Of a DNA stretch of 64,000 nt, positions 6,734-45,237 are shown piece after piece; positions within the stretch are counted from its first letter, which is position 1; every line of letters starts with the position of its first letter. Location of the stretch: positions 1,356 to 65,355 of the forward strand of contig JAGVQB010000045.1 of NCBI GenBank assembly GCA_020051955.1. The letters run 5' to 3'. Source of the DNA: a bacterium. GTDB lineage: Bacteria; Patescibacteriota; Patescibacteriia; UBA9934; GWF2-40-263. The notes under the pieces are model-generated. The model did no database searches. It worked only from the letters and a program-made list of their open reading frames with translations, and was not told where the DNA came from. The translations under genes were made by a program, and so were the position numbers.

Positions 6734-7429
6734 TTATTTTTCGCTTTCTAACCAAGCTTTTAATAAAAAGATTGTCTCCGTTCGAAGCTTTGCTCGCGCC
6801 CAGTCTTTCCGCGGTTCGTTCAGCATCTCTCCGAGACCATCGAGGATGTGACGATTATCCATTTTTTCCAAAAGCTCTGTGCACTTAGCTAAAACTTCTT
6901 TAAACGGCATCTTTGCACGGCTCTCAACTAATTTTCTATTTATTGGCCAATTATTCTTCGCGAAAAAATACACATCGTAAACATCACGGCTCGTTTTTCC
7001 GATCCGCTCATACATCGCCATTAGTTTGTTGGCGAACATGTCCTCCTTGACCATTACTTGCATTGAGATACCAAGCAAAGTTTTTAATTCATACTTAGAA
7101 CCAAAATCCCTGCGGTTAACCTCAATCTTGATATTTTGAGATTTCAAATCGTATGAGATAACCGTGACGAGGTTGAATCGTTTGATTCTTGAATCAACAA
7201 CCTTGCCATAACTCATAGCTATTTTTTGTATTTTCTCAAATACTTCCTGCTTTTTATTTTCGTTTAAAAGGTCAAGATCGATACCAACTGAATTACGGGT
7301 CAAGTCATAAAACATTAAGGCGGCTGTGCCACCCTTAAACCCCAAATAGGGAGACAGCGAGGTATCAGAAAAAATATCTTTCAAGATTTGTAATAAGATA
7401 TTTTTGTGTTTCGGATAGTCTAATGTCAT
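6734..7429 (-). CDS. abiEii: nucleotidyltransferase AbiEii/AbiGii-family toxin (type IV TA system), 231 aa
   Basis: LGFKGGTAALMFYDLTRNSVGIDLDL matches the GGTAL...DLD nucleotidyltransferase signature of DUF1814/AbiEii. Size fits, and it sits directly downstream of an AbiEi-like gene. Local GC is about 32 %. Confidence 0.8.
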   Translation of the reverse strand: MTLDYPKHKNILLQILKDIFSDTSLSPYLGFKGGTAALMFYDLTRNSVGIDLDLLNENKKQEVFEKIQKIAMSYGKVVDSRIKRFNLVTVISYDLKSQNIKIEVNRRDFGSKYELKTLLGISMQVMVKEDMFANKLMAMYERIGKTSRDVYDVYFFAKNNWPINRKLVESRAKMPFKEVLAKCTELLEKMDNRHILDGLGEMLNEPRKDWARAKLRTETIFLLKAWLESEK

Positions 7430-7434
7430 ATGGT

Positions 7435-8031
7435 TTAATTATTGTCTTTGTAGTGTTTAAAATATTCTGCAACTTTTTTCCCCATCCTCTTATTGCGATA
7501 TATCGGCAAAATTTCAAAAACCTTGTCCCAATCCAAAACGTCCAAGTGATCGAAGTGATAATCCTTGCTGATATATATCCGATCCAAAAACGCTCGCTCT
7601 TTTGTCGCAGTAGAAATATCGTTTGTATGTTCAATCCCGATTGTATTGCTCAAAACATAATCTTTCATTCTTATAAAAGATATTTTTTGTCCGTCTGCTT
7701 CAATTTCCCTGGTAACATAAGAAGCAACAAAAATATTTTCATAGTACTGGAAGTTTATTCCTGTCCGAGTTAATACCGTTTCAAAACTGATGTATGAAGG
7801 CGTGTAGATTCGAGTAGCTAACTCAAAACGATCGTAGTTATTATCTTTGGCATAAATGCCACGATGGACTCTGATCAATTTTCCTCTTTTTACGTAATTG
7901 CTCAATCTCACCCGGACCTTTGCTTCTCCTTGTTCGCCCCACAACAAAGCAATGTCTTTGGTAGAAAAGACAGTTTTGGGAGATCTTAACAAGGATTCGA
8001 TGTATTGACCTTTTGTGGGTTTATTATCCAT
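7435..8031 (-). CDS. abiEi: AbiEi-family antitoxin / transcriptional regulator (198 aa)
   Basis: The C-terminal half (RVHRGIYAKDN...YTPSYISFETVLTRTGI) resembles the AbiEi antitoxin domain. There is a 5 nt gap to abiEii on the same strand, the canonical AbiEi-AbiEii operon order. Confidence 0.72.
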   Translation of the reverse strand: MDNKPTKGQYIESLLRSPKTVFSTKDIALLWGEQGEAKVRVRLSNYVKRGKLIRVHRGIYAKDNNYDRFELATRIYTPSYISFETVLTRTGINFQYYENIFVASYVTREIEADGQKISFIRMKDYVLSNTIGIEHTNDISTATKERAFLDRIYISKDYHFDHLDVLDWDKVFEILPIYRNKRMGKKVAEYFKHYKDNN

Positions 8032-8902: not shown

Positions 8903-9202
8903 ATGATTGCTCCACTTAAGATATTTATTGACCGTTTAATTGAGGAAAAAGATCTTTTAGCTCTTGAACCAGAAGTGCTAAAACAGGTAAAAGCTGATCT
9001 TTCAGAACGTCTTGAGGATCGTATTAATGCGGCTGTTCTTAAGCATCTTCCACCCGACAAGCTTTCCGCGTTTGAAAAATTGCTTGATACTAAAGCGTCA
9101 GATGAGGAGATACAGAGGTTTTGTCGTGAGCAGATTCCGAATCTCGACGAAGTGATCGCGTCAACGCTCGTGGAGTTTCAGCTGACATACCTTCAAGTTT
9201 AA
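8903..9202 (+). CDS. small helical hypothetical protein (~99 aa), immediately upstream of the giant ORF
   Basis: ORF of about 105 aa with a coherent helical, charged composition. Start chosen at the ATG at 8903 (track starts at TTG 8885). No Shine-Dalgarno sequence and no recognisable family. Confidence 0.4.
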   Translation: MIAPLKIFIDRLIEEKDLLALEPEVLKQVKADLSERLEDRINAAVLKHLPPDKLSAFEKLLDTKASDEEIQRFCREQIPNLDEVIASTLVEFQLTYLQV

Positions 9203-9211
9203 TTATTCTGT

Positions 9212-12200
9212 ATGCATACGAACGAAGGCGCTCCTTCTGTTGTGGAAGGATCAGAAAGTACAAAAGCGAAGAAGAAGATTGTTATTGTTGAACACGCGGG
9301 AGCTATTGAAACTGAATCTCGTGATGCAGCCGAAGCTCACATGTCTGCTTCTAAAAAAGAGTTGAAAGGCGTGCGTGGAGTTTTTAAAAAAATTTGGAAG
9401 CATAATTTATTTCACGAGTATTATCGTCAAAAAGAAATTGCATTAGTGCGCGAGAAAATACTTAATACCAAAAGTCTTTTTGCAGGTGAGAAAGAAGCTC
9501 GTGTAGCGCATAAGGCGGCGATGGGCGCGCTAACTGATCGTTTTTTGCAGGAGTATGAAGAGGCGGTACACAAGGAAGCCGGGGAGTCGCGAGAAGTACT
9601 TGGGAACGAGGAGACCGATGTTGATACTCGGGAAGAGATACACAAAGTATTGAGAGATTACGCGGCTGGAAATTTGACGGAGGAAACATTTGAGGAAGAA
9701 CGTAACAGGATACTGTCAAAGCTTACTGGCTTGTCGCGCGAGGCAATTCAAAGCGAGGTACGACATACGGACAGCTTGCGTGAGGTCGCGCACGGACTGC
9801 GACAGTCGGTTGAGCATGGATCGTGTCTTGAAGACCTCGATATTGATTTTGATATCGTGATTGGGCGCGCTAAGTGTGGAGTCCGCACAGAAGCACAGTT
9901 TAATACGGTGGATCGTATTGTGGAGAAAATCCAATCAAGTCGCGTTGGAAAGTTTTTGAATGAGACAACTGTCGCGTCGGCAGTCGCGATTGCGTATTCT
10001 CTGACAGCTGGGCTGTCCCAACGCTTGGCGCGAAGTAAGGCGCTCGCTTGGGGGAGTTTCGGACTTACTGCCGCGATCAGCGGCGGTGTTGCCGCGGCAA
10101 GGGAGAGCAAACGAATTGAAGAAGAACGTCGGCAACACGGAAGGGAAATGGCAAAGGGGCAAACTTTTGAGGAAACTCAAACGCCACGTCGCAAAGAAAT
10201 GGAAAACTATCGGTATGAAACAAAAGACGCGTATGTGATCACACGCGAACTTTCAGACACCCTCGAATATGATTTGAAAGAGGCCGAAGCATTTTCTCGC
10301 GTTGTTGAAAAGTTGTCTGATATTGAAGCACGCGTTCGGCTTTCTGATCGCCACAGCATTGATCTTATTTCGTATTCCAGCGGAGATTTGGTTGAGAATG
10401 AACGTTTGAATCTGGATATTGCTCGCGCTAAGGCAAAGGTAAAGTTGCGTCAGATGTACGCGTCCGGGCAGATCAACCTTACAGAGGGAGAAACAATGGA
10501 TGGATTTTTGGCAAAGTCCGCTGATCTGCAGATGGAAATATTGACTAAGGGTGATGCGGGTATTGAGGAAAAGAATCGAATTTTTAGAAAGATGAAAACA
10601 AAGCGAGTTGTGGGAGCCGCGCTCAAGGGGCTGGGGACAGGTCTCGTGATTGGTGGTGTATTTCAGGAGGCGGTAGCGTTTTTTAGCGATGCGCAGAGCG
10701 GTGTGGTTGAAGGAATGGTCGGCATACCACATGAGGCAGGGGAGAGGATAACAGCGCTTGAGCGCTTGCGAATGTTTTTGAAAGGGGAGACGTTTGATAC
10801 TCCTTTGGTTAACAGTATCGAAACGCACGCACCAGACGGAAGTCTTTTGAAACTTCCAGAGGATATAGAGATAGTGCCTAATGCTGGAAACGCGAATGTG
10901 TTTGACTTAGTTCGTGACGGGGAAACGATCGCGTCTGGGCTTGAATGCAAAGACGGGGTACTCACCGCGGCTTCGGCAAATGTGGTTGAAGATGCTGGTG
11001 GTTTTGTCGCGGTTGATAGTCATCAAGAGATGGTATTAGTACCAGGCGAACGCACCGCCGTTGATGTGGCAGGGAGTCGCACGGATCTTTTTCATCGAAT
11101 TCATCGAACCCTTTGGTATGGCAATGACACGCCCAAACCCATTTTTGATAAAAACGAATTAAAATTGGATTGGGGAGGTGGGGGTGATGGGTTTGATGAC
11201 AATGGTAATTTTACATTCAACATTGCTCGAATGAGGGCAGACGGTTCTTTTCAGGATGGTTTTTCAGTTGACGCGCAAAAGGCGATGAAAGAAGGCAAGC
11301 TGAAAATGATTCTTTCTTTGACGCGAGATACGCAAAGAGAGGTGGTGGAGATTCCGATTGATGCTCATGGAAACGCGGCTGTTGATCCAAACAGTGAAAT
11401 TGGAAAAATGTTTTTTAGTCAGAAAGATGGCAAGGCAGTATTCCACGGCGCGTTCGCTGAGGTCGTGCAGTCAACAGGCGTGGGAGAAGACGGTGGGGAG
11501 AACGTGCGAATATTGGCAACCCACATCGGAGACGAATCCGCTGTGCGAGAAGTGATACCAGAGCCAGTATTGGTTCCAGAATCGAAAGTCGTCTCAATTA
11601 CCAATATCACCTTGCCGCCAGGCGATGATCTTTTTGTCGTTCCTCCGATGGTGATTCCTGTGTTCGGAAGAAAGCCACTTGAATCCACAAAACAGCCAAC
11701 AGTTCCCCCACTACGTTATACTAAGCCACCAGAAATTGGGATCGGGTATTATTACAATTCGTTTCCGGAACAATCTGAACAGCAATGTAAAGCACGCATG
11801 TCTGAATCCTTGCGTAATAATCCTGATGCGCAGCTTGATACTGTTAAGGAGGTTCGACAATATATCGAAAAACAGGATGAAAAATATCGCGAACAGATTA
11901 AATTGTTAGCCGGGCAAGCAGACCCAATGGAGAATGGCTGTAAAGTTGCGGTATGTATTCCAGCCGCAGGTCATCAAGAGGGAGGAAATATCTATCGCAC
12001 GCTTGAAAATTATACTCATCAGATAGCTTCTCGAGATTCGTTCGAGATTTTGATTTTAGTTAATCGCCCTGATGTTGATGAGGAGGGGAAGCGTGTTGAG
12101 CCAGATCAGACAATAAATGAGATTCAACGTTTCAAAAAAGCGTATCCCGATATGCCAGTGCGAGTTATGGAAGTAATCCTTCCAAAAGGACAAGCAAAAA

Positions 12201-22601: not shown

Positions 22602-24505
<1,904 letters not shown>

Positions 24506-25349: not shown

Positions 25350-26084
25350 ATGGCAAAGAAAAAGATTCGACGTTTCGACATTCTGACAATTTTTCCAGAA
25401 ACAGTGACGCCCTATGTTCAGGCGTCGATTTTGGGTCGCGCGCAGGAGGCTGGGTTGATTGAGGTTAAGACGCATGACCTTCGCGTGTGGTCGACTGATA
25501 AGCATCATAAAGTTGATGACACGCCATATGGCGGGGGCCCTGGGATGGTGATGAAGGTTGAACCGTTTGAGAGGGCGGTGAGGGAACTCAAGGGAGGAGG
25601 GGTGAGGGGTGAGGGGAGAGGGAGGAGGGAGGAGGTGAGAGGGAAGACGCGGGTGATTCTTACGTCGGCTTCTGGTGAGACGTTCACTCAGAAAGACGCG
25701 AAGAGGTTGGAAAAGTACGATCACCTTATCTTTTTGTGCGGTCGTTATGAGGGAGTTGATCATCGCGTAGAAGAGTATGTCGCGGATGAAGCGTTTTCGA
25801 TCGGGGAGTATGTTTTAACTGGCGGTGAGTTACCTGCAATGGTGATGATAGACGCGATCGCGCGTCTGGTGCCTGGTGTGATTGAAAAAGATTCGCTCGC
25901 GCGCGAGTCGCATAGCAAGAAAGGTTACCGCGAGCATCCACAATATACGAAGCCCGCGGTTTACAGTCCCGGGGCTAGTGGGAGGGGTAAGACGATTGCA
26001 CAGTGGGAGATTCCCGACGTCCTTCTCTCCGGCGATCACAAAAAAATCGAGGAGTGGCGCAACAAACATTCAGTTACAAAATAA
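25350..26084 (+). CDS. trmD: tRNA (guanine37-N1)-methyltransferase
   Basis: FDILTIFPE, TPYGGGPGMVMKVEP and YEGVDHRV...VLTGGELPAMVMIDAIARLVPGV are TrmD SPOUT motifs. It also contains a G-rich low-complexity insert, KGGGVRGEGRGRREEVRGKT. Confidence 0.92.
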   Translation: MAKKKIRRFDILTIFPETVTPYVQASILGRAQEAGLIEVKTHDLRVWSTDKHHKVDDTPYGGGPGMVMKVEPFERAVRELKGGGVRGEGRGRREEVRGKTRVILTSASGETFTQKDAKRLEKYDHLIFLCGRYEGVDHRVEEYVADEAFSIGEYVLTGGELPAMVMIDAIARLVPGVIEKDSLARESHSKKGYREHPQYTKPAVYSPGASGRGKTIAQWEIPDVLLSGDHKKIEEWRNKHSVTK

Positions 26085-26611: not shown

Positions 26612-27667
26612 CTAGTCGAAATTGGCGGGATTGTCAATGGATAGTTGCCCGCAGGCGGCCGTTATATCAGCACCCATCGCGCGGCGCACAGTGGCAGTGA
26701 CGTTATTTTTTTGTAGGGAGTCGTGGAAGGCGGTGATCGTTGTGTCATCAGAGCGTTCAAAATCAACACCTGTCAGGTTGTAGGGGATGAGGTTTACTTT
26801 TATGCGGCCGATTCGGTTTACAAAAGTTGAAAGCGCCTTGGCGTGAGTGGGGGAATCGTTTACTCCCTTGAGCATAACGTATTCGAAAGTGAGGTGATGG
26901 CGTCTGTTGCCGTGGAGCTTGAGATAATTCTTTGCCCAGCGTTCAAGTCCAGGCAGAAATTCATCGTAAGAAGTTGGTACGATTTGTTTGCGCGTTGATT
27001 CGATCGCGGAGTGGAGAGAAACAGCCAGGCGCACAGGCGGCCATTGTTTGTCAGTGAGGATTTGTTCCAGGCGCGGGAGTATGCCAACAGTTGAAACGGT
27101 AATGTGCGTGGGACCAATGTCGGTTTTTGCAAGCAATGTGTTGAGCGCGCCGCGGACTTCTTCGTAGTTCGCAAGTGGTTCTCCCATGCCCATTATTACG
27201 ATATTGGAAATGCGAGGCGAGGTGGTGAGGTGGTCAGGTGGTAAGGTGTTTTCGGAATACATTTTCCAAAAACGATATTGATCAACAATTTCATCACTTG
27301 AGAGGTTGCGCGTGAGTCCCATCTTTCCAGTCGCGCAAAAACTGCATCGCATCGCGCAACCAACCTGCGAGGACACGCAGATCGTCCATGCCCCACGCCG
27401 GTTGGCCATAAGCACACTCTCGATTTGTTTGCCACCCTCCACGTTGAGCAGAGCTTTGTGCGTTTCGCCATTCGCGCTGACTTGAATGTTGGCAAGCCCA
27501 ACCGACAGCCATGGGATTTCCTTGAGGCTCTCGCGCATGGATTTGGGAATTGTCGTTGCTTCATCCCAACCATTGGCAGACGAAAAAAGCGCGTCCTCGA
27601 TTTGCTTCCAGCGAAAAGCCGGTTCGTTTGGGAAAAGTTTTTCGAATTGAGTTTTGCGTGTCTCCAT
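26612..27667 (-). CDS. rlmN: 23S rRNA/tRNA (adenine-C2)-methyltransferase, radical SAM (RlmN/Cfr family)
   Basis: Radical-SAM cluster CAMRCSFCATG, plus GMGEPLANY and the C-terminal Cys region. 351 aa, the size of RlmN. Confidence 0.88.
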   Translation of the reverse strand: METRKTQFEKLFPNEPAFRWKQIEDALFSSANGWDEATTIPKSMRESLKEIPWLSVGLANIQVSANGETHKALLNVEGGKQIESVLMANRRGAWTICVSSQVGCAMRCSFCATGKMGLTRNLSSDEIVDQYRFWKMYSENTLPPDHLTTSPRISNIVIMGMGEPLANYEEVRGALNTLLAKTDIGPTHITVSTVGILPRLEQILTDKQWPPVRLAVSLHSAIESTRKQIVPTSYDEFLPGLERWAKNYLKLHGNRRHHLTFEYVMLKGVNDSPTHAKALSTFVNRIGRIKVNLIPYNLTGVDFERSDDTTITAFHDSLQKNNVTATVRRAMGADITAACGQLSIDNPANFD

Positions 27668-27712
27668 AAAATAATAGGCGAGAGCTTCTGCTCCCGCCTA
27701 TATTATATCTGA

Positions 27713-28060
27713 TTATTGCGCTGGTGTTTCAGCTGGTTTTTCTTTTGCGGCTTCCGCGGCTTTTGCGTCGAGTTTGGTTTTGCGCGTTTTTGAGATGTGG
27801 CTTACGCCGCGCTTCTCGCCTTCCACGATTTTTTCATCAACGAGCAGGTTCCACAGTGTGCTAGACACTTCAGCTCCTTGCGCGATCCAGTATTTAACGC
27901 GGTCAGCGTTGATTACCAATTCGCGTGGGTTTTTGCGTGGATCAAAGTGGCCGAGGATTTCTGTGTACTTAGCCCACGGGTCGCGGTGTTTTGGGATTAC
28001 GATGACTCGGTAGATTGGCGCGCCAGTTTTCCCAACGCGAGAGAGACGGATAGAAAGCAT
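27713..28060 (-). CDS. rpsP: 30S ribosomal protein S16 with short K/A/E-rich C-terminal extension
   Basis: MLSIRLSRVGKTGAPIYRVIV...YTEILGHFDP is the canonical bS16 N-terminus. Confidence 0.93.
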   Translation of the reverse strand: MLSIRLSRVGKTGAPIYRVIVIPKHRDPWAKYTEILGHFDPRKNPRELVINADRVKYWIAQGAEVSSTLWNLLVDEKIVEGEKRGVSHISKTRKTKLDAKAAEAAKEKPAETPAQ

Positions 28061-28146
28061 AATTTTGGTCGTTGTGTTTGATTACGTAAACCGTGCCGCA
28101 AGGATAAGGAATCTGACTGGGAATGTCAACAAATAAGCCAAATACC

Positions 28147-28175
28147 TTGACAAAACGGTCAAAATATGATATTCT
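28147..28175 (+). promoter_or_regulatory. sigma70-like promoter (TTGACA-17-TATTCT) feeding a ~200 nt structured leader
   Basis: TTGACAaaacggtcaaaatatgaTATTCT. The downstream leader carries two tandem CAGGCTnnAGCCTG hairpins before the ATG at 28382. Confidence 0.5.
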
Positions 28176-28381
28176 TGTCTCTTCTGTTTATTGTGAGAAG
28201 GGAGGAATTCCTCAATTGAGTGACTTATTTCCTGGTAGCCGCAGGCTTTAGCCTGTGTGCGATTCACGCGGCGCAGGCTGTAGCCTGCGGCCGCCACGGA
28301 AAGAATCGGCCGTTCAGTTGAGGGATTCATCCCCTGCCGTTGCTCATCCCGAGCGCGGTGCAAGTAAAGAGGTACGAGAAG

Positions 28382-28849
28382 ATGTCCAAGAACGTTGCCA
28401 TGCTCGTCTGCGCGGTTCTGTTCTTCCTCGCGGCCGTCGCCCAGGTGGCGCACGCCGACGAGACTTCGGTCGCGCCCGCGACCGTCTCGGTCACCTACGC
28501 CGGCGAGGAGTGGAAGCCCGGCAAGGCACTGGGCATCTGCGTCCAGACGGGTCTGCGGTCGAAGGGTCTACTCGGCGACTACTCCGTGGTCTTCAGCTTC
28601 ACCACGGAGAGCGTCATGACGTCGAGAGAGAGGTTCTGGGGTGCTCTTAGCTTCCTCCTCATCGACAGCGACGAGAACCTGATCTCCATGGCCTTCGGGC
28701 AGGAGGTCGGGGAGACGGCTGAGGAGTTGAAGCAGAGAGCGATCGGAGGAGACAAGCTGTCTCCAGGCGGTCGCTACTTCCTCTCGACCTGCGAGACACT
28801 CACGAATACCGTCGTGAGCTTCGTCCCGCGGGCGGAGGTGAAGGAGTAG
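28382..28849 (+). CDS. small secreted hypothetical protein (155 aa), very GC-rich
   Basis: ATG at 28382 with AAGAGG upstream. Signal peptide MSKNVAMLVCAVLFFLAAVAQVAHA. Sample lines give 65-73 % GC. Confidence 0.6.
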   Translation: MSKNVAMLVCAVLFFLAAVAQVAHADETSVAPATVSVTYAGEEWKPGKALGICVQTGLRSKGLLGDYSVVFSFTTESVMTSRERFWGALSFLLIDSDENLISMAFGQEVGETAEELKQRAIGGDKLSPGGRYFLSTCETLTNTVVSFVPRAEVKE

Positions 28850-29921
28850 GACGGAACCGGAACTAAGACAAGAAACGGGGGGTGCGGAGGAACGTCGATG
28901 GACGACGACAGGGAGCTCATGAGGGATCTGGTGGAGATCTGGGTGGTAACCACCCTGTTTCAACTCCTCCTTTTCTGTGGGGCGTACCTGATAGGGTACT
29001 TCTTCACCGGGTTCTCGAGTTGAGTCCACGGAACCTGGAATGCGTCCGCGTGGCGCCAGGTTTCAAATCAACGCGGCGGATCGCAGTTCACCAGATCCGA
29101 GTATTCGCAACCGAGCTCGTAGGTGGAACGGGCTCAAATGGAGTAGACATGGGCTACAGCTAGAAGGAAGCGTCTGGAGGTCGTAAGACCAAGTCACGGC
29201 CAGGCGTGGATACATAAGTGACCCGGCGTACTATGCGAGGTTGCCAGACGTGAGAGTTAGGAACGGAAAGGGACAGAAAGCCCGAGTACAAGTACGAAGC
29301 GATACCGTCTGAAGCAATCACTCGAGAGCAATCTCGGGACGTCGGGGAGTGGTAACACTCCGAAGGGTCGCGCCAAAGCATGGGAGCCGTTGACAGTGAA
29401 GGCTCAAAGGGCTGGCAACCCAATCTGTCAAAAAGGCCTTGTGAGTTTGGCCTCCTGTCTACGGACGGGTCAAATGAACTCTCCTTGGTTGTGGCGGTCA
29501 ACAACCCGTTTTCAATCCGCGTTTTAAGAAAAACGAGGACTTTGGTCGGCAGAGTTCGACACGGCGCGCGAGACGTTCTTGCGCCACTTGCCAGCGGTGT
29601 ATCACTGGCAGACTCGCATTTCGCGAGCGGGGAATTGTGTGGCGCCCTTAAAGGCCACTTTGCAGAAGGAGGTCAGAAATGACTTACCCGTTGCTGTTCT
29701 ACGATGTTACAAACGCGCTTTCCCCTGAGCGCGCCAAAAAACCAAAGGTAAGGGGGTAAGGATCTCGGCCGTCAACGTGACAAAACGGCCGGGGATCCTA
29801 ACGATACTTTCCCCGGTCGCTTGGGCGCCTCCCGCGTCCATCACGTTGCGTTCCGGGGTCCTCTACCGAAATGCTGATTGTTACATCGCGTACCAATCGG
29901 CAGGTCAGTTGAGAGAAACAT
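28850..29921 (+). other. ~1.07 kb GC-rich segment without credible ORFs (candidate structured RNA or foreign remnant)
   Basis: All six frames are broken into ORFs shorter than 115 codons with implausible composition. There are many local hairpins. A 26-codon sORF with a perfect AAGGAGG Shine-Dalgarno sequence sits at 29679-29759. The segment ends at a strong terminator at 29922-29948. Confidence 0.4.
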
Positions 29922-29948
29922 AAAACACGTCTTTATGAGACGTGTTTT
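29922..29948. terminator. bidirectional rho-independent terminator
   Basis: AAAACACGTCTTTATGAGACGTGTTTT: an 11 bp perfect stem with A and T runs. It abuts the relE stop. Confidence 0.75.
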
Positions 29949-29949
29949 G

Positions 29950-30216
29950 TTATAGATGGTGATAGATATCTTTGCGATGGCAGATTCTGTGTAGAATAAT
30001 TTTTGATCGATCGAATGTATAAATTAAACGGTAGTCACCCACACGTAAGCGCCAAAGTGGCGGACGTGTGAACCCAGAAAGTTTTTTAATGTCGAGCGTC
30101 GCATTGATTGGGTTTAGTTGAAGTAGCTTTGCGATCACGTCTGCCTTAATTTGTATTTGGATCGGAAGACTACGAAAATCCTTCGTGAATTGCCGAGTCA
30201 CGACGATCTCTCGCAT
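29950..30216 (-). CDS. relE: RelE/ParE-family type II toxin (88 aa)
   Basis: RLRVGDYRLIYTFDRSKIILHRICHRKDIY matches the conserved RelE/ParE C-terminal core. Confidence 0.8.
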   Translation of the reverse strand: MREIVVTRQFTKDFRSLPIQIQIKADVIAKLLQLNPINATLDIKKLSGFTRPPLWRLRVGDYRLIYTFDRSKIILHRICHRKDIYHHL

Positions 30217-30219
30217 ACT

Positions 30220-30414
30220 TTAAACGAGCTCGCGAAGGGAACGCACTGTTCGCGTCTTTCCTTGCGTGGCTTCTTTAATAGAACGTCGCAACCCCTTTTG
30301 AAACACTGGGTCAAAATCGCCAGACCTCTCAAGGATATCTTCCACTAGATTTGCAAGATTCAAACTTGCACGAAAGATGCGGCGTAATTTTAGTTGAGTT
30401 ACAGTTTGGTTCAT
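30220..30414 (-). CDS. putative cognate antitoxin (RHH/ParD-RelB-like, ~64 aa)
   Basis: Small ORF ending 3 nt before relE, at ATG 30414. MNQTVTQLKLRR... has antitoxin-like size and position. The family assignment is tentative. Confidence 0.5.
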   Translation of the reverse strand: MNQTVTQLKLRRIFRASLNLANLVEDILERSGDFDPVFQKGLRRSIKEATQGKTRTVRSLRELV

Positions 30415-30517
30415 ACATACGCAAGTTAACACGGAGTAAAGCTAGGAGTCCAGTTTTTTGTTGATTCCTTTCTCCGTTTGGGTTTTGGATTTTGGTTTTT
30501 TGGATTTTTCGGTTTCA

Positions 30518-32788
30518 TTACCTCCTCGCAACCCCATTCTGCGTGATTTCCTCCAGGTGGACTGACAACAAGCTCGAAATGCCGTCAGTGCCCATTGTTA
30601 CGCCATAGAGAATATCTGCTTTTTCCATTGTCGCGCGGTTGTGGGTGATGACGATGAATTGGCTAGTGCGCGCGAGGTCCTCCAGGATCGCGGCGAAGCG
30701 GATTGTGTTGGCTTCATCAAGCGCGGCATCAACCTCGTCGAGCACAACAAACGGCGCTGGGTTTACTGCCATGATTGCGGAGACAAGAGCGATTGATGTA
30801 AGCGCGCGCTCACCACCGGAAAGCAGGTTTAACGCCTTGAGCCTTTTCCCAGGCGGGGTTGCTTGGATGTCGATGCCGACAATTTTTTCCTCCGCGTTTA
30901 CCCGTTCCCTGTTCACCGTTCCCTGTTCACTGTTCCCTCCCTCTACCGTTTCCTCCACCTCTTCCCTCGTCAACTTCACCAACGCGCACGATCCTCCACC
31001 GAAAAGCATTTTGAAATATCGCTCAAACTCTTTATTGATTTTGGAGAACGTTGCCTTTGACTGTTTTTCAATTTGTTCGTCGAGTTCCTTGATTATTTTT
31101 TCTGTTGACGCGAGAGCGGCGTTGAGGTCTTTGACCTGCTCATCAAGAAATTCGAAACGATCTTTTGTCTCGCCGTATTCTTTTACTATTTCCGGATCAA
31201 TTCCACCTATGAGTTCGAGCTTGTATCGAAGGCGCTGGATTTCGGGATAGGCTTCATCGGTTTGGATTTTGGATTTTGGATTTTGGATTTTTTCCTGCCT
31301 CACCCCCACCGCCCTCTCCTTCATAAACTCATCCATCTCCCGCGTGAGGGCTTTTTGGCGTTCCTCAAAACGCACTAAAGCGATTTGGAGAGTGTTGCGC
31401 TCGTTTTCTAGCAAGTGGGTTTGATTTTGTTTTTCGCGCAGGGAATGTTGCAAGCCGATAAGTTCACTTCGGGCAGTGCGTTCCTTACTTGTGTAGTTGT
31501 CGATTGTTTTTTCAAGCTCGTCAATTTCTTTTACTAGATTTTGTTCTTGCGTTCGCTTGGTTTTCAGTTCCTCAACCATTTTTGGATCAGGCTTGATGTC
31601 TTCTGGGTTTGGGCGCTGAAGACTTTTGGAAAGTTTTTGTGACCGCGTAAGAAGTGACTCGATTCCATCCAAAATTGCCTCCAGCCCTTTCAGCCCTCGC
31701 AGTCCTTTTAGTCCTTCCACCATTCCCTCAACCTCCTCAACGATTTTCAACAAAGGAAGCGGCGCCCAATTTGATTGCGCGCGCGCTCGCGCGAGTTCGA
31801 TTTCTTTTTCGAGCGAGAATTGCTCGCTCCGCAAAGCCTCACGTTTTTTTCCAAGCGCTTTGTATTGATTCTTCAAACCTACCAGTTGTGTGTCCTCATC
31901 GGTCCCAAAGTTTTCAGCGCGCTCTGATTCTTTTTCAAGCGTGTGAAGTTCTGCCCTCTCGGTTTTAATTTTTTTCTCAATCTCATCAAACCCCTGTCTT
32001 GCTGTTTCCAATTCGTCCATCAGGTTCCACCATTGAGAACCGTAATAACACGACTCAAGCTCGTGGAGGGCTTTTTCAATCTCACCGCGTTGTTCAAGAC
32101 GTACTGCTTGGCGCTTAAGAGAACGAAGCCGCGGTTCGATTTCCCGCAACAGCATTTCAACCTCTGTCAGATTTTCGTGTGTGCGCGTGAGTTTTAACAA
32201 TGCCTCGTGTCGTTTGATTTGGAATGGTTTTACTCCGGTGGCATCGTCAAAAAAATCTTTGCGCTCCTCTGGAGATGAAACAAGAATGTGGTCAATCATG
32301 CCTTGTCCGATAACGCAGTACGAACGCTGTCCAACGTTTGCTTCTGCCAGAAGTAGTTGGATATCAGCAAGGCGAACAGAGCCCTCGTTGAGGAGATAAT
32401 CGGAAGTTCCATCTCGAAACAGCCTCCGCGTGATTACTACCTCTGGGTATTCAAGTGGCATTGTTTTGTCTTGGTTGTTGAAGGTCAAAGATACTTGCGC
32501 AAAGCCAGATCGTCCTTTGCCATCAGAGCCAGAAAAAATTACATCCTCTGATTTTTTTCCACGCAAAAGTTTAAGACTTTGTTCACCCAGCACCCATCTG
32601 ATCGCGTCAGCAAGGTTTGATTTACCGCTACCATTTGGACCAACGATGGAGGTGATGGGGAATCGTAATTCCCCCCCTGCCCGAGGGGGGGTCAGGGGGG
32701 GTGGGAGTGCGGCCGGTGGGAGAAAAGAAAGCGTTGTTTTTTTTGCAAACGTTTTGAACCCCTGCAGTTCCAGTTTAGTAAGAAACAT
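30518..32788 (-). CDS. SMC/RecF-superfamily ATPase with long coiled coils (SMC-like, 756 aa, no obvious hinge) carrying several low-complexity inserts
   Basis: N-terminal Walker A (GPNGSGKSNLADAIRWVLGEQS), a long heptad-rich middle, and C-terminal signature plus Walker B (LSGGERALTSIALVSAIMAVNPAPFVVLDEVDAALD). The inserts LPPAALPPPLTPPRAGGELR, KIQNPKSKIQ and VEETVEGGNSEQGTVNRERVNAE are encoded by simple repeats. Confidence 0.8.
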   Translation of the reverse strand: MFLTKLELQGFKTFAKKTTLSFLPPAALPPPLTPPRAGGELRFPITSIVGPNGSGKSNLADAIRWVLGEQSLKLLRGKKSEDVIFSGSDGKGRSGFAQVSLTFNNQDKTMPLEYPEVVITRRLFRDGTSDYLLNEGSVRLADIQLLLAEANVGQRSYCVIGQGMIDHILVSSPEERKDFFDDATGVKPFQIKRHEALLKLTRTHENLTEVEMLLREIEPRLRSLKRQAVRLEQRGEIEKALHELESCYYGSQWWNLMDELETARQGFDEIEKKIKTERAELHTLEKESERAENFGTDEDTQLVGLKNQYKALGKKREALRSEQFSLEKEIELARARAQSNWAPLPLLKIVEEVEGMVEGLKGLRGLKGLEAILDGIESLLTRSQKLSKSLQRPNPEDIKPDPKMVEELKTKRTQEQNLVKEIDELEKTIDNYTSKERTARSELIGLQHSLREKQNQTHLLENERNTLQIALVRFEERQKALTREMDEFMKERAVGVRQEKIQNPKSKIQTDEAYPEIQRLRYKLELIGGIDPEIVKEYGETKDRFEFLDEQVKDLNAALASTEKIIKELDEQIEKQSKATFSKINKEFERYFKMLFGGGSCALVKLTREEVEETVEGGNSEQGTVNRERVNAEEKIVGIDIQATPPGKRLKALNLLSGGERALTSIALVSAIMAVNPAPFVVLDEVDAALDEANTIRFAAILEDLARTSQFIVITHNRATMEKADILYGVTMGTDGISSLLSVHLEEITQNGVARR

Positions 32789-42954: not shown

Positions 42955-43088
42955 CTGGGTAACGGTATTGTGGCTTGCATCAGCGAAAATATCGTAACCG
43001 AGTAATGGCGAAGGTAGGTCGTTGGCTCTTGACCGATCGTCAAAAAGCTGGTAGGTTTTTGTGGCTAGGAACCTGCAAAAAGAGAGGA

Positions 43089-43382
43089 ATGAAAATGCCG
43101 ACGATGAAGTACAACGTCCTGATCGGTGACGACGGCGAACGGCGCGAGGTGGTGGTCGAGTACTCCGACATCACCGCGCTGGTGAGGGACATTCTCGACG
43201 TAGGGAGGATCCATTCGCCGACAGCGCGCACCAGTGAAAGGGATCGTGTGGAGAGTGCGTCGGGTTTGCCGCTTCTCAAGGCGCTCACGGACTGGCGACC
43301 CGGGGATTCGGTCACGATCCTCAATGCGGAGGAAGCACCACTCCGAAGTCGAGAATTCTTCGACGTGGCCTTCACTGGTTAG
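43089..43382 (+). CDS. small hypothetical protein, paralog 2 (GC-rich)
   Basis: GAGAGG then ATG at 43089. The N-terminus MKYNVLIGDDGERREVVVEYSDITALVRDILDVG is alignable with paralog 1. Confidence 0.55.
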   Translation: MKMPTMKYNVLIGDDGERREVVVEYSDITALVRDILDVGRIHSPTARTSERDRVESASGLPLLKALTDWRPGDSVTILNAEEAPLRSREFFDVAFTG

Positions 43383-43506
43383 TTGCCCCGTACACGATTC
43401 GTGCGCCTGTGAAATACCAGGCGTTTTATTTTTGGAAAAATAAAACCGCCCGTTTATCTTCCGCACGTGGGTGCGGCCGATTTTGGGCGGAGAGAGAACG
43501 TCTGAC

Positions 43507-45138
43507 CTAGTGTGCCGCCTTGCCCTTGGGGATCGCCTTGCGGATGAGCACGCACAGCACGAACCCTATCACTGCTGGCGGGATCATCCACAGCGGCCAA
43601 TCTGACCAGTTGTGCCAGTCAGCGGCCGCCGCCTCCCTGGGAAGCCTGGCACCGTACCAGAATGCCATGAGTGAACTTCCCAGGTACACGCATCCGTCGA
43701 TGATGCCCACTGCGATGCCCGCGTTCTTGGATCCGCCGAAGTCCTGCGTCGCTGTCCCAGAGAGCATTCCGTGCACGCCGATGACGCACAGGGACGCGAT
43801 CAGGCACAGCCACATCACAGCGGCGTTCCCAAGCACGAAGTACATCACGCACGCGCACGCGATCATGCCGCCGTAGAGTATGGCCGCGACCGGTCCGCGT
43901 CTTGATTCAAAGAACCTGTCACTGATGATGCCTGCGAACATGCCACCGAGGATTCCCGCCAGGCAAAGGAGCATACCCCAGTGAGGCTCGAGGTATGAGC
44001 CAACGTGGGTTGCCTTCATGAAGCTTGGTCCCCACTGCATGATCGCCTGCCTGACGAAGCCAGTGCAGAACTCGATCGCGGCTACCGCGACGATGATCGG
44101 GTTGCGCGCCATCATCAGGAAGACCTTGTGAGGCGGGTTTGTTGGTCCCTTCTCGCCAGATGTCGCATCTCCTGTGTCGAAGTCCTCGAGCCCAGCATCC
44201 TTGGGTGAGTTGCGGATGAGCTTGTGGCCAACCACGAAGCTCACGCACAGGATGGCTGCTGGGACAAAGAACACGAGGTGGACCTGGTGCTCCCAGATCT
44301 TGAGGAGTAGACCGTTCCAGTCATAGGCAAAGTAGAGTCCAAGCGAGATCAGGATCCCGAAGATGGCACCAAAGACTCCACGTTCCTTCACGTGGAACCA
44401 CGGCGAGTTCACCTTGACGATGGCGACAGCGCCGAAGCTCTGGAAGTACATATTGATCGCGTAAAGAACACAGAGGGCAGGCATGAGCTTGGAGGTGGCA
44501 CTCACATTGTGCTCGATACCGAAGAGCCCACGGAACCAGACGAAGCCGCTGAAGATCGGCTTGGCGAATTCATTCACCACGTTACCAAGCGCGCCGATTT
44601 CTCCGTTGCTTCTCACGACTTCCCACGCCACGACGCCCATCAGGACATTGGCGATGATGACCCCAGCGGCCGAGATCAGGATCGTCAGCCTTCCGCCGTA
44701 TCGGTCAGTGAGCGGACCATTGAGCAAGAACGACAGTCCATACACCAACGTGCCGATCCCGAAGATGATCCCGAAGTCAGCGTTGTCCATGAGACCGAAC
44801 TGGCTGAACTCCTTCTTGCTCACTGTCAGGTTGTAGCGCGCCATGTAGAGGAACGCGTAGATCGCTCCTAGTGGAACCCAGTTCATCACCCGTCTCTTGA
44901 TGAGGTCGGGCTTGAGATGGTCCATCGCGAGCTTGGGTTGACGCGCGAACACGAACACGATGACAACGAGCAGAAGCAGGATTGGGAGGAACTCCTTCAG
45001 GGAGATCAGGAACACGCTTTCCTTGCTTGTACCTGCCTCTTGCGCGGCAAGTGCGAGCGTTGGGAAGAGACTCATTGCCAGGGCAGAAAGAGCTACGAGA
45101 ATTTTGGACACCGGCGCCTCCTTGTGGGTTTTGCCCAC
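43507..45138 (-). CDS. MFS transporter, organophosphate:Pi antiporter (GlpT/UhpC)-like
   Basis: 543 aa with 12 TM helices. YMARYNLT...YGLSFLLNGPLTDRYGGR resembles the OPA-family N-terminal signature. GC is about 56 %. Confidence 0.7.
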   Translation of the reverse strand: MGKTHKEAPVSKILVALSALAMSLFPTLALAAQEAGTSKESVFLISLKEFLPILLLLVVIVFVFARQPKLAMDHLKPDLIKRRVMNWVPLGAIYAFLYMARYNLTVSKKEFSQFGLMDNADFGIIFGIGTLVYGLSFLLNGPLTDRYGGRLTILISAAGVIIANVLMGVVAWEVVRSNGEIGALGNVVNEFAKPIFSGFVWFRGLFGIEHNVSATSKLMPALCVLYAINMYFQSFGAVAIVKVNSPWFHVKERGVFGAIFGILISLGLYFAYDWNGLLLKIWEHQVHLVFFVPAAILCVSFVVGHKLIRNSPKDAGLEDFDTGDATSGEKGPTNPPHKVFLMMARNPIIVAVAAIEFCTGFVRQAIMQWGPSFMKATHVGSYLEPHWGMLLCLAGILGGMFAGIISDRFFESRRGPVAAILYGGMIACACVMYFVLGNAAVMWLCLIASLCVIGVHGMLSGTATQDFGGSKNAGIAVGIIDGCVYLGSSLMAFWYGARLPREAAAADWHNWSDWPLWMIPPAVIGFVLCVLIRKAIPKGKAAH

Positions 45139-45237
45139 GTTTTTGAGTGTCTGTTTGCCGTGAGCGAACGGCAGTATTGACCCTAATACGACAGAGGGAA
45201 ATGTGCAAACAAAAAACCGAGGAGGTACCTCGATTAT

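Follow-up and report, generated by a model that had tools for sequence, protein, structure and literature searches.

A candidate large structured RNA with a putative internal mini-ORF between rpsP and smc in Candidatus Uhrbacteria

Introduction

Large, intricately folded bacterial RNAs are, to our knowledge, rare. RNase P, the group II introns, OLE, GOLLD and ROOL each opened new biochemistry or structural biology, and we know of hardly any non-coding RNA described in the Candidate Phyla Radiation (CPR). Here we consider a 64-kb stretch of a CPR chromosome (positions 1,356 to 65,355 of contig JAGVQB010000045.1; hereafter the window, whose coordinates are used throughout) and, within it, an island at 28147-29948 that stands out by its GC content. 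An earlier note on this DNA had described the island as a promoter, a structured leader, a small secreted protein and a segment free of open reading frames (ORFs) that closes with a terminator. Its observations are partly confirmed by the present analysis and its interpretation is partly supported. The "ORF-free" segment is, very probably, a previously undescribed structured RNA of ~0.8-0.9 kb, retained at one chromosomal site in a clade of very small bacteria from groundwater, Candidatus Uhrbacteria.

The closest described systems are the large RNAs OLE, GOLLD, ROOL and raiA. These RNAs, some of whose properties are given in PMC12286853, exceed 500 nt, are built from many covarying short helices with conserved unpaired junctions and pseudoknots, and are lineage-restricted products of stand-alone transcription units, and in all of this the Uhrbacteria RNA is like them. 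Their Rfam models, however, give no match to it even at E<=5, and the Uhrbacteria RNA, unlike them, holds a conserved mini-ORF led by a Shine-Dalgarno (SD) sequence and ends in a palindrome that recurs nearby. It is also fixed at a single site, between rpsP and smc, whereas OLE, GOLLD, ROOL and raiA occur in prophage, tRNA or membrane-protein contexts.

Other described RNAs resemble it in their combination of structure and short ORF. The dual-function RNAs (S. aureus RNAIII/hld, SgrS/SgrT and B. subtilis SR1/SR1P) likewise join a structured RNA to a short peptide, both conserved; they are themselves 200-500 nt long and base-pair with mRNAs, whereas the structure of the Uhrbacteria RNA is far larger and more conserved than an antisense seed, and its peptide, whose translation is predicted, has only 9-11 amino acids (aa) and is dispensable in one relative, L092 (L and P numbers denote loci and proteins, respectively, of relatives). 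The tmRNA (SsrA) is comparable in being rich in pseudoknots and in having within it a short ORF at which ribosomes enter, but the Uhrbacteria RNA has neither a tRNA-like domain nor a CCA-proximal acceptor stem, its ORF has an SD and AUG of its own, and the peptide is unlike a degradation tag. Leader-peptide attenuators and arrest ORFs (pheL, tnaC, ermCL) share with it a very short SD-led ORF, a conserved aromatic-rich peptide and adjoining strong hairpins; in contrast to these, the internal ORF considered here (sORF 2) has no regulated gene downstream, and a terminator ends the unit.

Results

Conservation and distribution of the RNA

We compared the window with 80 rlmN neighbourhoods, one genome per species. 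Nine Uhrbacteria loci match positions 29100-29930, with nucleotide identities of 64-75% and E values of 1e-24 to 1e-66; their orientation relative to rlmN is constant, and no long ORF is shared in any frame among the matching stretches. A metagenome scan with the invariant 21-mer AAGGGTCGCGCYAAAGCATRG yielded five more distinct copies, and a profile search with nhmmer gave 15 distinct copies and later L091-L093 and L096. The RNA is present in 17 other distinct assemblies, which makes an alignable set of 18 sequences; the 15 distinct RNA sequences are 50-82% identical in pairwise comparison. Every locus long enough to include both flanks has the same order, rlmN-rpsP, then the RNA, then smc. 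Hainich and other groundwater sites are the source of L002/L096-98, L083 and L005.

A covariance model of the most conserved 137 nt of the core recovers 13 RNA-bearing loci among 86 sources, at 58-143 bits, and finds no distant copies in 1.17 Mb of rlmN-neighbourhood loci from other CPR lineages. Within the data searched, therefore, the RNA is confined to one Uhrbacteria subclade, a range that stands as a lower bound since it derives from one genome-collection scan and one metagenome scan. Viral contigs contain no exact match to the invariant 21-mer or to the hairpin consensus described below, and the whole island has no match in phage and plasmid collections (blastn, distant mode); with these collections negative, a phage or satellite origin is not supported.

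Covariation, strand and known RNA families

The consensus structure obtained with RNAalifold has 83 base pairs in 19 helices, and 45 of these pairs show compensatory double substitutions. Paired cells amount to 95.0%, as opposed to 85.4% in shuffled alignments (none of 500 reaches the observed value) and 32-44% when the structure is slid by 1-3 columns. The 45 pairs with double changes compare with 22.3 in the shuffles and 7-15 in the slid controls, and the covariation score of 0.364 with 0.179 and 0.05-0.09, respectively. The element thus has what a structured non-coding RNA in general is expected to have, namely compensatory pairs beyond controls and no conserved frame. With ~790-880 nt from the conserved 5' hairpins to the terminator, at least 19 helices plus a pseudoknot, a promoter and a terminator, it also falls into the descriptive class of large ornate non-coding RNAs. 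For the variable blocks, no consensus structure emerged from a plain MAFFT realignment.

Invariant G-U pairs (for example alignment A2 columns 162/334 and 195/270) place the RNA on the + strand, and the folding energy is lower on that strand (-422.8 kcal/mol vs -379.1 kcal/mol on the - strand); for both reasons we take the + strand to be the RNA strand. At the level of sequence comparison, these data show a new, strongly constrained fold of ~0.8-0.9 kb on the + strand, with a conserved mini-ORF that is predicted to encode a peptide. Of the candidates put forward in the earlier note, a long non-coding RNA is strongly supported for 29131-29921, given nucleotide conservation in 17 other assemblies, the lack of a shared ORF and the heavy covariation. 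Of the two outcomes between which the note had asked to decide, the segment is conserved as RNA with covariation and not as a frameshifted pseudogene. Its description of 28850-29921 as gene-free had overlooked a 41-codon ORF at 28898-29023.

The RNA matches none of the families in Rfam 15, whose 4227 models include RNase P, tmRNA, signal recognition particle (SRP) RNA, 6S, group I/II introns, OLE, GOLLD, ROOL, HEARO and raiA. At gathering scores the whole window returned only the 16S rRNA and tRNAs; in 27000-31000 the sole match was a chance microRNA on the leader hairpin, at 23.6 bits against a gathering score of 57; and a permissive search (E<=5) of seven homologous loci gave nothing on the element. 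The earlier note, which had seen no signatures of RNase P, tmRNA, SRP or group II introns and had recommended an Rfam search of the island, is in agreement with this outcome and with that of ARAGORN. In the relative L002, a SAM (S-box) riboswitch matches at 9160-9262 (+) with 47.3 bits, above its gathering score, on the RNA-distal side of rlmN. Since a standard riboswitch is detectable in a relative, the missing Rfam matches on the large RNA are meaningful. Full-text literature searches on non-coding or structured RNAs in Uhrbacteria, Patescibacteria or the CPR likewise gave no description of it.

Individual families were considered more closely. A tmRNA has a tRNA-like acceptor/T-arm domain plus a tag ORF that lacks an SD and an AUG. 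ARAGORN reports five tRNAs and no tmRNA in the window and the Rfam tmRNA clan is negative; with no tRNA-like domain found, and with AAGGAGG and AUG at the sORF, tmRNA is not supported. A group II intron, ORF-less and attC-targeting IIC forms included, would have the structure of domains V/VI and D1-D4, would be inserted into a gene or directly after a terminator or attC hairpin, and would usually encode a reverse transcriptase. The RNA has no Intron_gpII or group-II-D1D4 match, no reverse transcriptase occurs among the Pfam families listed for the neighbouring ORFs, and the element has a promoter and a terminator of its own, so that a group II intron is not supported either. A resemblance by eye to the CR-I and CR-V regions of RNase P (GAGGAAAG, ACAGAAAGCCCG) sits in variable hairpins and is unconserved among homologues.

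Public gene calls place a 134-aa "hypothetical protein" antisense on the RNA in L093 (7007-7411, - strand), and a - strand ORF of the window (29160-29504) is likewise antisense on it. In L096, a 213-aa "hypothetical protein" (7240-7881) is called on the non-coding stretch between promoter and RNA. Having no Pfam match and no conservation, these calls are probably mis-annotations that result from an unmodelled RNA, and annotation of these genomes would gain from a model of it.

Anatomy of the RNA

The RNA extends over ~29040/29131-29921, its 5' end being approximate, and comprises the following parts.

29040-29130, + strand: 5' extension, conserved in the window-type subgroup (upstream alignments; L091, L092, L093)
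29131-29592, + strand: conserved core of ~17 helices (nhmmer/blastn, alignments A1/A2/A5/A6, RNAalifold, pair counts, covariance model)
29149-29163, + strand: mini-ORF 1 (AUG GGC UAC AGC UAG), with GGAG at 29140-29143
CUCC 29481-29484 and stem 29487-29492/29501-29506, + strand: H-type pseudoknot in the core, with loop GGCGGUCA (stem covariation)
29593-29665, + strand: variable hairpin region between core and sORF 2 (poorly alignable columns 700-810 of A2)
29666-29672 and 29679-29759, + strand: SD AAGGAGG and sORF 2 (per-locus extraction; first nine codons, MTYPLLFYD, conserved)
29713-29859, + strand: 3' domain (conserved blocks in A1/A2; single-sequence fold)
29860-29914, + strand: terminal palindromic hairpin (helices 18-19 with compensatory changes; hairpin census; repeat D1; fold)

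Two long-range pairings, 29140-29145/29587-29592 and 29365-29367/29583-29585, close the core. Within it lies the invariant block AAGGGTCGCGCCAAAGCATGG (29363-29383), ~21 consecutive and mostly unpaired nucleotides, and the most conserved nucleotides of the whole RNA lie in the core, not around the SD of the sORF. The pseudoknot, which RNAalifold does not capture, is laid out as a CUCCUC tract followed by a 6-7-bp stem whose loop reads GGAGGUYA, and this stem covaries in six versions (CGTAGGT/ATCTACG, TGCACGT/ATGTGCA, TGCAGAT/ATCTGCA, CGCAGGT/ATCTGCG, GGTCAT/ATGACC and GGTTGT/ACAACC).

The 5' extension consists of a hairpin, a UCAACGCGG element complementary to the CCGCGU loop of that hairpin, a GGAUC...GAUCC hairpin and a CUCG-UAGGUGGAA-CGGG hairpin; its single-sequence fold is not significant (z = -0.3), and it is assigned by conservation only. 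On the other side of the core, the variable hairpin region differs in length and sequence among relatives. The 3' domain has a CGCGC-(C-rich loop)-GCGCG hairpin, a GGAUCUCGGCCG...CGGCCGGGGAUCC hairpin and a CCCCGG...CCGGGG pairing that leads into the terminal hairpin. Complementarity in the aligned sequences suggests a possible second pseudoknot between the CCCC loop of the CGCGC hairpin and a downstream GGGGG.

Mini-ORF 1 is conserved in its SD, its start codon and a nearby stop just before GGAAGCG: the AUG occurs in all but one of the 15 copies aligned, and most have a stop 2-5 codons further on. The peptide itself is unconserved. Its GGAGG pairs alternatively, in the RNAalifold structure, with UUGUCC ~450 nt downstream (88% paired, one compensatory pair), and the readings of this element as SD and as part of a closing helix are not mutually exclusive.

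The internal sORF 2

The 26-codon sORF at 29679-29759 and the AAGGAGG at 29666-29672 that the earlier note had pointed out are both present. In relatives, sORF 2 has 9-11 codons; the window copy has lost the stop, and its frame runs for 26 codons through the following hairpin. The peptides are of two types, A (MTYPLLFYDH*, MTFPLLFYES*, MAYPLLFYES*, MTYPMLLYES*, MHFRPLLFYEF*) and B (xFPSWFG*: MANFPSWFG*, MVRFPSWFG*, MKDYKSWFG*), and an SD precedes all copies of both. Differences at codon positions 1/2/3 number 62/64/110 and 25/29/47, and synonymous variation is seen at Leu, Pro, Phe, Tyr, Ser and Gly codons. On this comparative evidence, sORF 2 is conserved, apparently translated and under constraint at the level of the peptide, which is truncated in L002 and divergent in L004.

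In L009, a second, core-less copy of the RNA's 3' domain (2658-2864, - strand) lies ~0.8 kb downstream of the full RNA. It includes a separate sORF led by an SD ((TTG)HFRPFLFYGFCHRASL*), and its terminal palindrome is a variant, CCTCTAT...ATAGAGG. In L092 the core is found without the sORF domain. The domain is, therefore, modular. We also considered sORF 2 as a leader-peptide transcription attenuator and set this aside, as an intrinsic terminator ends the unit and no co-oriented gene lies downstream.

The transcription unit

The window is core chromosome, carrying rpoB/rpoC, gyrA, ftsH, clpP, tsaD, trmD, ruvC, 16S rRNA and tRNA genes, and the RlmN that adjoins the island is at most 71% identical to proteins of Candidatus Uhrbacteria metagenome-assembled genomes. 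The island is flanked on one side by rpsP (27713-28060, - strand) and on the other by a RelE/ParE toxin gene (29950-30216, - strand), which is followed by a putative antitoxin gene and smc. Mean GC is 61.7% in 28200-28849 and 55.5% in 28850-29921 vs 47-52% in the flanks. The switch in GC that had first drawn attention is real in that the island exceeds its surroundings, but the level of 65-73% then quoted is reached in just three 60-nt lines (28260, 28440 and 28500). Besides the RNA, the island contains five features.

28147-28175, + strand: sigma-70-type promoter with extended -10 (TTGACAAAACGGTCAAAATATGATATTCT) (consensus scan; conserved in relatives)
28200-28333, + strand: long, near-perfect 5'-leader hairpin of ~130 nt (fold; core palindrome CCTCAAT...GTTGAGG, 28210-28323)
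28382-28849, + strand: ORF155, a putative small secreted protein of 155 aa (ORF; coding periodicity)
28898-29023, + strand: ORF41, a putative small membrane peptide of 41 codons (MDDDRELMRDLVEIWVVTTLFQLLLFCGAYLIGYFFTGFSS), with GGAGG 7 nt before its ATG
29922-29948, both strands: bidirectional intrinsic terminator (AAAACACGTCT-CATAA-AGACGTGTTTT) (terminator scan, perfect 11-bp inverted repeat, A-/T-tracts)

Sequence analysis predicts that the island, 28147-29948, is one operon-like transcription unit of the Uhrbacteria chromosome. Its promoter (TTGACA-17-TATTCT, as first noted) matches the consensus at 10 of 12 positions and has a TG extension; a divergent rpsP promoter lies at 28129-28101 on the - strand. 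A 26-nt promoter motif (at most six substitutions), TTGACAAAAyGGTCAAAAAaTGATAt across relatives, precedes the RNA, in the RNA's orientation, in L091-L098 and in all but two of the 14 relatives aligned (12 of 14). Promoter and RNA are 71 nt to 2987 nt apart. At the lower end, in L007, nothing lies between the two; several relatives have a leader-peptide/terminator element and small ORFs in this interval; and in the window, L091, L092 and L093 it is occupied by a gene of the ORF155 secreted-protein family.

On the + strand, no second sigma-70-like promoter is predicted in 28176-29921, in line with the single promoter-to-terminator unit originally proposed, and the sole terminator-like match in that interval (29487-29506) is the stem of the RNA's own pseudoknot. 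A separate promoter just upstream of the RNA was rejected, as the consensus scan finds none immediately 5' of it and merely a weak TATnnT is conserved, in a subgroup only.

The leader hairpin folds with -86.7 kcal/mol (z = -10.7; 0/200 shuffles as good) and is also seen in the repeat scan, as inverted repeat I1 and direct repeat D4. Two copies of CAGGCTnnAGCCTG do occur in the leader, at 28240-28255 and 28272-28287; they had been read as two tandem hairpins but are the opposite arms of the one hairpin at 28200-28333. A homologous leader hairpin with the same flanks (AAGGGAGGA ... GGGATTCAYCC) occurs in L093.

At the other end of the unit, the perfect 11-bp hairpin of the terminator is as previously described and is additionally bidirectional. 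On the + strand it closes off the RNA; on the - strand it does so for the convergent RelE/ParE operon, directly beside the RelE/ParE stop codon. Terminators with A-tract, hairpin and T-tract also stand 3' of the RNA in L004, L007, L083, L084, L090, L092 and L093. Beyond the terminator in the window is the convergent RelE/ParE gene and no co-oriented gene. Because transcription is predicted to terminate directly after the RNA, the RNA is not the leader of a downstream gene and would not act as a cis-regulator of one.

In most relatives, an element of ~130 nt stands right after the shared promoter (L011:5802-6061(-), L004:6332-6591(-), L084:10834-11093(-), L090:85-344, L002:4526-4785(-), L005:5744-6003(-) and L086:9307-9566); in the window it is absent or replaced (28176-28381). 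Its parts are a CAUUGG-GGAGAGAGA-CCUAAUG hairpin, an SD-led leader ORF of 11-13 codons (…LAFLG*/…AFLS*) and a long hairpin, CUGAUUAUUGGUUAUCUCC...GGUAACCGGUAAUCAG, with a U-tract, and GGAGAGAGACC could form an antiterminator with GGUUAUCUCC. Between this element and the RNA are co-oriented small ORFs that vary among relatives. The element, which has no Rfam match, looks like an undescribed leader-peptide attenuator or riboswitch-like element. The classical combination of leader peptide and terminator is, in other words, separate from sORF 2, located after the promoter in relatives and missing in the window.

ORF155 and ORF41

The signal-peptide ORF of 155 aa reported in the earlier note is present, with its coordinates corrected to 28382-28849 (ATG at 28382 rather than 28383). 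The protein has an N-terminal signal peptide ending AHA|DE, as read from sequence only, the motifs ICVQTGLR and CExLTNTVVxFxPR and two conserved Cys; GC content at codon positions 1/2/3 is 0.58/0.45/0.87. There is no Pfam match, an AlphaFold2 model made without an alignment is uninformative (pLDDT 43), and a word-indexed protein search returned only ORF155 itself. An exhaustive phmmer search of a 1.84-billion-protein library overturned its status as an orphan, finding eight relatives at 29-49% identity that share the signal peptide, ICVQTGLR, CGxLTxTxVxFxPRE and the two Cys.

The gene family is associated with the RNA in other species. Four of the five ORF155 relatives whose contigs were read adjoin it: between rpsP and smc, P0007 (L093-95), P0004 (L091) and P0005 (L092) show the promoter-ORF-RNA order of the window, whereas P0009, from L096-98 (same species as L002), is ~1.7 kb upstream of the RNA at the same locus. 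P0008 is the sole examined relative located elsewhere. The family's gene sites are L093:6001-6489, L096:6001-6468, L092:2131-2637, L099:2644-3093 and L091:400-894.

In every genome, the GC content at third codon positions (GC3) of this family is 0.82-0.90 vs 0.43-0.75 for neighbouring host genes; mobility, expression level and mRNA structure are candidate causes of this persistence. The "GC-rich island" is therefore partly a property of the gene family and not evidence of a one-off foreign insert. For the same reason, and because the operon order recurs, ORF155 as a recent horizontally transferred cassette was rejected. The earlier note's idea of a riboregulated small-protein locus was partly right, in that the family recurs in the same promoter-ORF-RNA operon of other species and sORF 2 is conserved with coding-type substitutions.

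ORF41 has transmembrane-like character as judged from its sequence, and a GC3 of 0.79 vs 0.38-0.57 for host genes (one exception at 0.77). It has no Pfam match and no counterpart in L091-L093, and among the loci examined this contig alone carries it.

The palindromic hairpin family

At its 3' end, over ~45 nt, the RNA forms a hairpin with the family consensus CCUCAAC-N4-(3x3 loop)-UCGAG-loop-CUCGA-N4-GUUGAGG, whose inner pairs covary; the terminal hairpin of the window is a CCUCUAC...GUUGAGA variant that it has in common with L093. The two copies of a 27-nt direct repeat, 28304-28330 and 29895-29921, correspond to the 3' arms of the leader and terminal hairpins, respectively. Further copies occur in L002/L096, L010, L011, L014, L005, L086 and L009, all between rpsP and smc, and in some relatives they recur around small ORFs and toxin-antitoxin modules as an integron-like array. 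Within the 64-kb window the family has only two members, 28210-28323 and the degenerate 29860-29914, the other regular-expression matches being mismatched chance occurrences. Dispersed palindromes of the repetitive extragenic palindrome (REP) or miniature inverted-repeat transposable element (MITE) type, of which many copies would be scattered over intergenic regions of the whole genome, do not describe the family, as its true members cluster between rpsP and smc (up to 64 kb examined per genome).

Discussion

Conservation in independent assemblies holds for the promoter, the leader hairpin and the protein family as well as for the RNA and the sORF, which places these features beyond chance. 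We favour, with a probability of roughly 0.6, the interpretation that its constant 3' member is a new structured RNA that acts in trans, is coupled to ribosomes and is produced from a promoter-terminator unit. The RNA would be a stable, non-mRNA product, either a ribonucleoprotein scaffold or a ribozyme-type molecule, and the variable upstream genes, those of the ORF155 family included, would exploit its strong, conserved promoter. A more tentative proposal concerns how ribosomes might be involved. They may load at the 5' mini-ORF and at the internal sORF, and their passage would remodel the neighbouring structure: several GGAGG elements could compete for CCUCC-like partners, and the stop codon of the sORF lies at the foot of a hairpin/pseudoknot. 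Translation status could thereby be coupled to the folding, stability or activity of the RNA. We regard this coupling mechanism as less likely than not.

Several points weigh against the trans-acting interpretation. The narrow distribution, in one Uhrbacteria subclade, looks hard to reconcile with a universal housekeeping role, and the RNA could be merely a very long structured 3' untranslated region (UTR). The RNA is predicted from genome sequence, and the translation of both mini-ORFs is inferred from comparative patterns only; the 5' GGAGG is possibly a helix strand instead of an SD, and L092, in which the core is kept without the sORF domain, implies that the peptide is not indispensable. 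The window copy is atypical in its weak closing helix, degenerate terminal hairpin and lost sORF stop. About 45% of the alignment columns have no structure assigned by RNAalifold, and the variable regions align poorly. Lastly, a missing record in Rfam and the literature is no proof that the RNA is undescribed.

For the tiny genomes of CPR bacteria, ~0.9 kb of conserved non-coding sequence is a substantial investment. The RNA also combines features that are not known to occur together elsewhere, namely a covarying core of ~550 nt with ~20 invariant unpaired nucleotides, two putative ribosome-loading mini-ORFs, predicted co-transcription with a putative secreted Cys protein and a terminal palindrome that recurs around toxin-antitoxin and orphan-gene units nearby. 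Secreted Cys proteins of the ORF155 type are candidate host-interaction factors of these presumed episymbionts, and the locus bears on how CPR bacteria regulate or exchange accessory genes. The 18 alignable sequences make the RNA a target for structure determination and metatranscriptomics.

The alternative that survives best, although we consider it unlikely, is an integron-like cassette platform, in which the conserved promoter would serve as Pc and the palindromes as attC-like sites folded from single-stranded DNA. The palindromes would bound mobile cassettes, the RNA would be a fixed anchor or a participant in recombination, and the recombinase would be encoded elsewhere. The architecture recalls that of integrons and of clusters of attC sites lacking integron-integrases (CALINs), where small ORFs lie behind a promoter in its orientation and the boundaries of the units are imperfect palindromes that have AAC...GTT cores and loops of variable size; some units are toxin-antitoxin modules, and the sites of one genome closely resemble each other. 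At the Uhrbacteria locus, the ORFs between promoter and RNA are co-oriented with the promoter, in inserts of 71-2987 nt, and the GC3 of the ORF155 family, 0.82-0.90 regardless of host, is what a mobile gene might show. The hairpin family is seen only in the rpsP-smc region of the loci examined, its arms covary to keep pairing around constant outer 7-mers, and many copies share with the RNA's 3' end a preceding small hairpin; near-identical copies flank units such as HicAB in L002/L096.

The hairpins themselves fit attC sites incompletely. An attC site has R'' (RYYYAAC) and R' (GTTRRRY) boxes, an unpaired central spacer, extrahelical bases that set strand choice and a variable terminal structure, over 57-141 nt. 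By these criteria, CCTCAAC and GTTGAGG match the boxes at 6/7 positions each, a 3x3 internal loop is present, and the terminal loop, from 3 to >80 nt, varies as that of attC does; yet the hairpins are only 41-45 nt long and symmetric, with no extrahelical bases seen, and the orientation of their sole asymmetric position (C.A vs U.G) is not uniform. In 14 loci, 143 ORFs at a distance of up to 5 kb from the RNA match 31 Pfam families, and the 25 most frequent of these include no integrase, transposase or reverse transcriptase; nor do the 25 families listed, of 69, for the 38 long ORFs of the window. The intI of an integron was not found in either set. A large conserved RNA within the array is itself a departure from integrons and CALINs, and window-type loci (the window and L093) have no array and carry just the degenerate hairpin of the RNA itself. 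The same cassette was not seen at two positions or in two genomes, and the hairpin consensus is absent from viral contigs.

A giant cis-regulatory RNA strikes us as decidedly unlikely. Here the product would be the 9-11-aa peptide, a signalling or regulatory micropeptide, and the ~550-nt core would be a riboswitch- or thermosensor-like gate on the SD of sORF 2. In its favour, SD and sORF are conserved with constraint on the peptide, the sORF directly follows the closed core on its 3' side, alternative pairings are conceivable among several GGAGG/CCUCC-type elements, and the core-less second sORF domain of L009 shows that the domain can stand alone. L092, however, keeps the core and has lost the domain, the peptide is truncated in L002 and divergent in L004, and the window copy reads through to a 26-aa product. 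An aptamer of 550 nt would be ~3-5x larger than known riboswitches, and the strongest nucleotide conservation is in the core rather than around the SD.

It is a long shot that the RNA is the central working part of a gene-capture locus of integron-like kind that lacks an integrase or, more generally, a ribozyme or guide RNA acting on the hairpin modules. Its core would then recognise, process or recombine the two-hairpin CCUCAAC...GUUGAGG modules that end the RNA and the neighbouring cassettes, with ribosome loading on the mini-ORFs controlling that activity. If true, CPR bacteria would shuffle or process accessory genes by a mechanism that has an RNA at its centre.

Very unlikely, in our view, is the possibility that the RNA has no function of its own and is a long structured 3' UTR that protects the mRNAs of ORF155 or other genes from exonucleases or localises them. 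In keeping with a 3' UTR, the promoter and variable ORFs always precede the RNA, stable hairpins and a terminator form its end, and the terminal hairpin module is also found after other small ORFs. In L007, in contrast, the promoter leads directly into the RNA with no ORF between; the upstream ORFs are unrelated between loci while the RNA is constant; and ~21 invariant, mostly unpaired nucleotides, long-range helices and a pseudoknot exceed what a stabiliser needs.

The proposals of a pseudogene or degraded foreign insert, made in the earlier note, and of a chimeric assembly, which it named as a way to be wrong, have a negligible probability: the GC content above that of the flanks, the atypical GC3 of ORF155 and ORF41 and the record of the exact ORF155 sequence from a single 71-kb contig would suit them, but the six longest ORFs of the stretch (both strands, 41-153 aa) have no Pfam match at E<=1 save a chance CD52 (E = 0.15), no homologue has a frame-consistent ORF and none is conserved among them, compensatory base-pair changes are incompatible with neutral decay, 17 other assemblies, independent and from several studies, carry this RNA at this locus, and the order of promoter, ORF155 family gene and RNA is reproduced in L091, L092 and L093.

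Further observations in the neighbourhood

The RelE/ParE module that converges on the terminator of the RNA (29950-30432, - strand) consists of a toxin of 88 aa (PF05016, E = 1e-7) and an upstream ORF of 70 aa, the presumed antitoxin, which has no Pfam match. Relatives carry HicAB or HepT modules at this position, and the site is therefore a toxin-antitoxin hotspot. Between rpsP and the conserved promoter, several relatives have a P-loop protein of ~190 aa (GFVGWPCAGKD..., AAA_18; L004:6733-7350(-), L007:6849-7415(-), L005:6708-7274(-), L011:6751-7308(-) and L097:4588-5151), which is missing there in the window.

Elsewhere in the window, the 16S rRNA gene (22602-24505, - strand) is 1904 nt long vs a model of 1533 positions (1413 bits), corresponding to ~370 nt of insertion(s); rRNA gene insertions are common in the CPR. 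A second GC-rich patch, at 43000-45200 (57-59% GC), contains an ORF of 543 aa (43507-45138, - strand) with a GC3 of 0.77, well above the other host genes sampled. Between the 16S rRNA gene and rlmN, 25350-25800 shows a G-over-C skew of +0.44 to +0.48 (300-nt windows) and overlaps an ORF of 244 aa (25350-26084, + strand).

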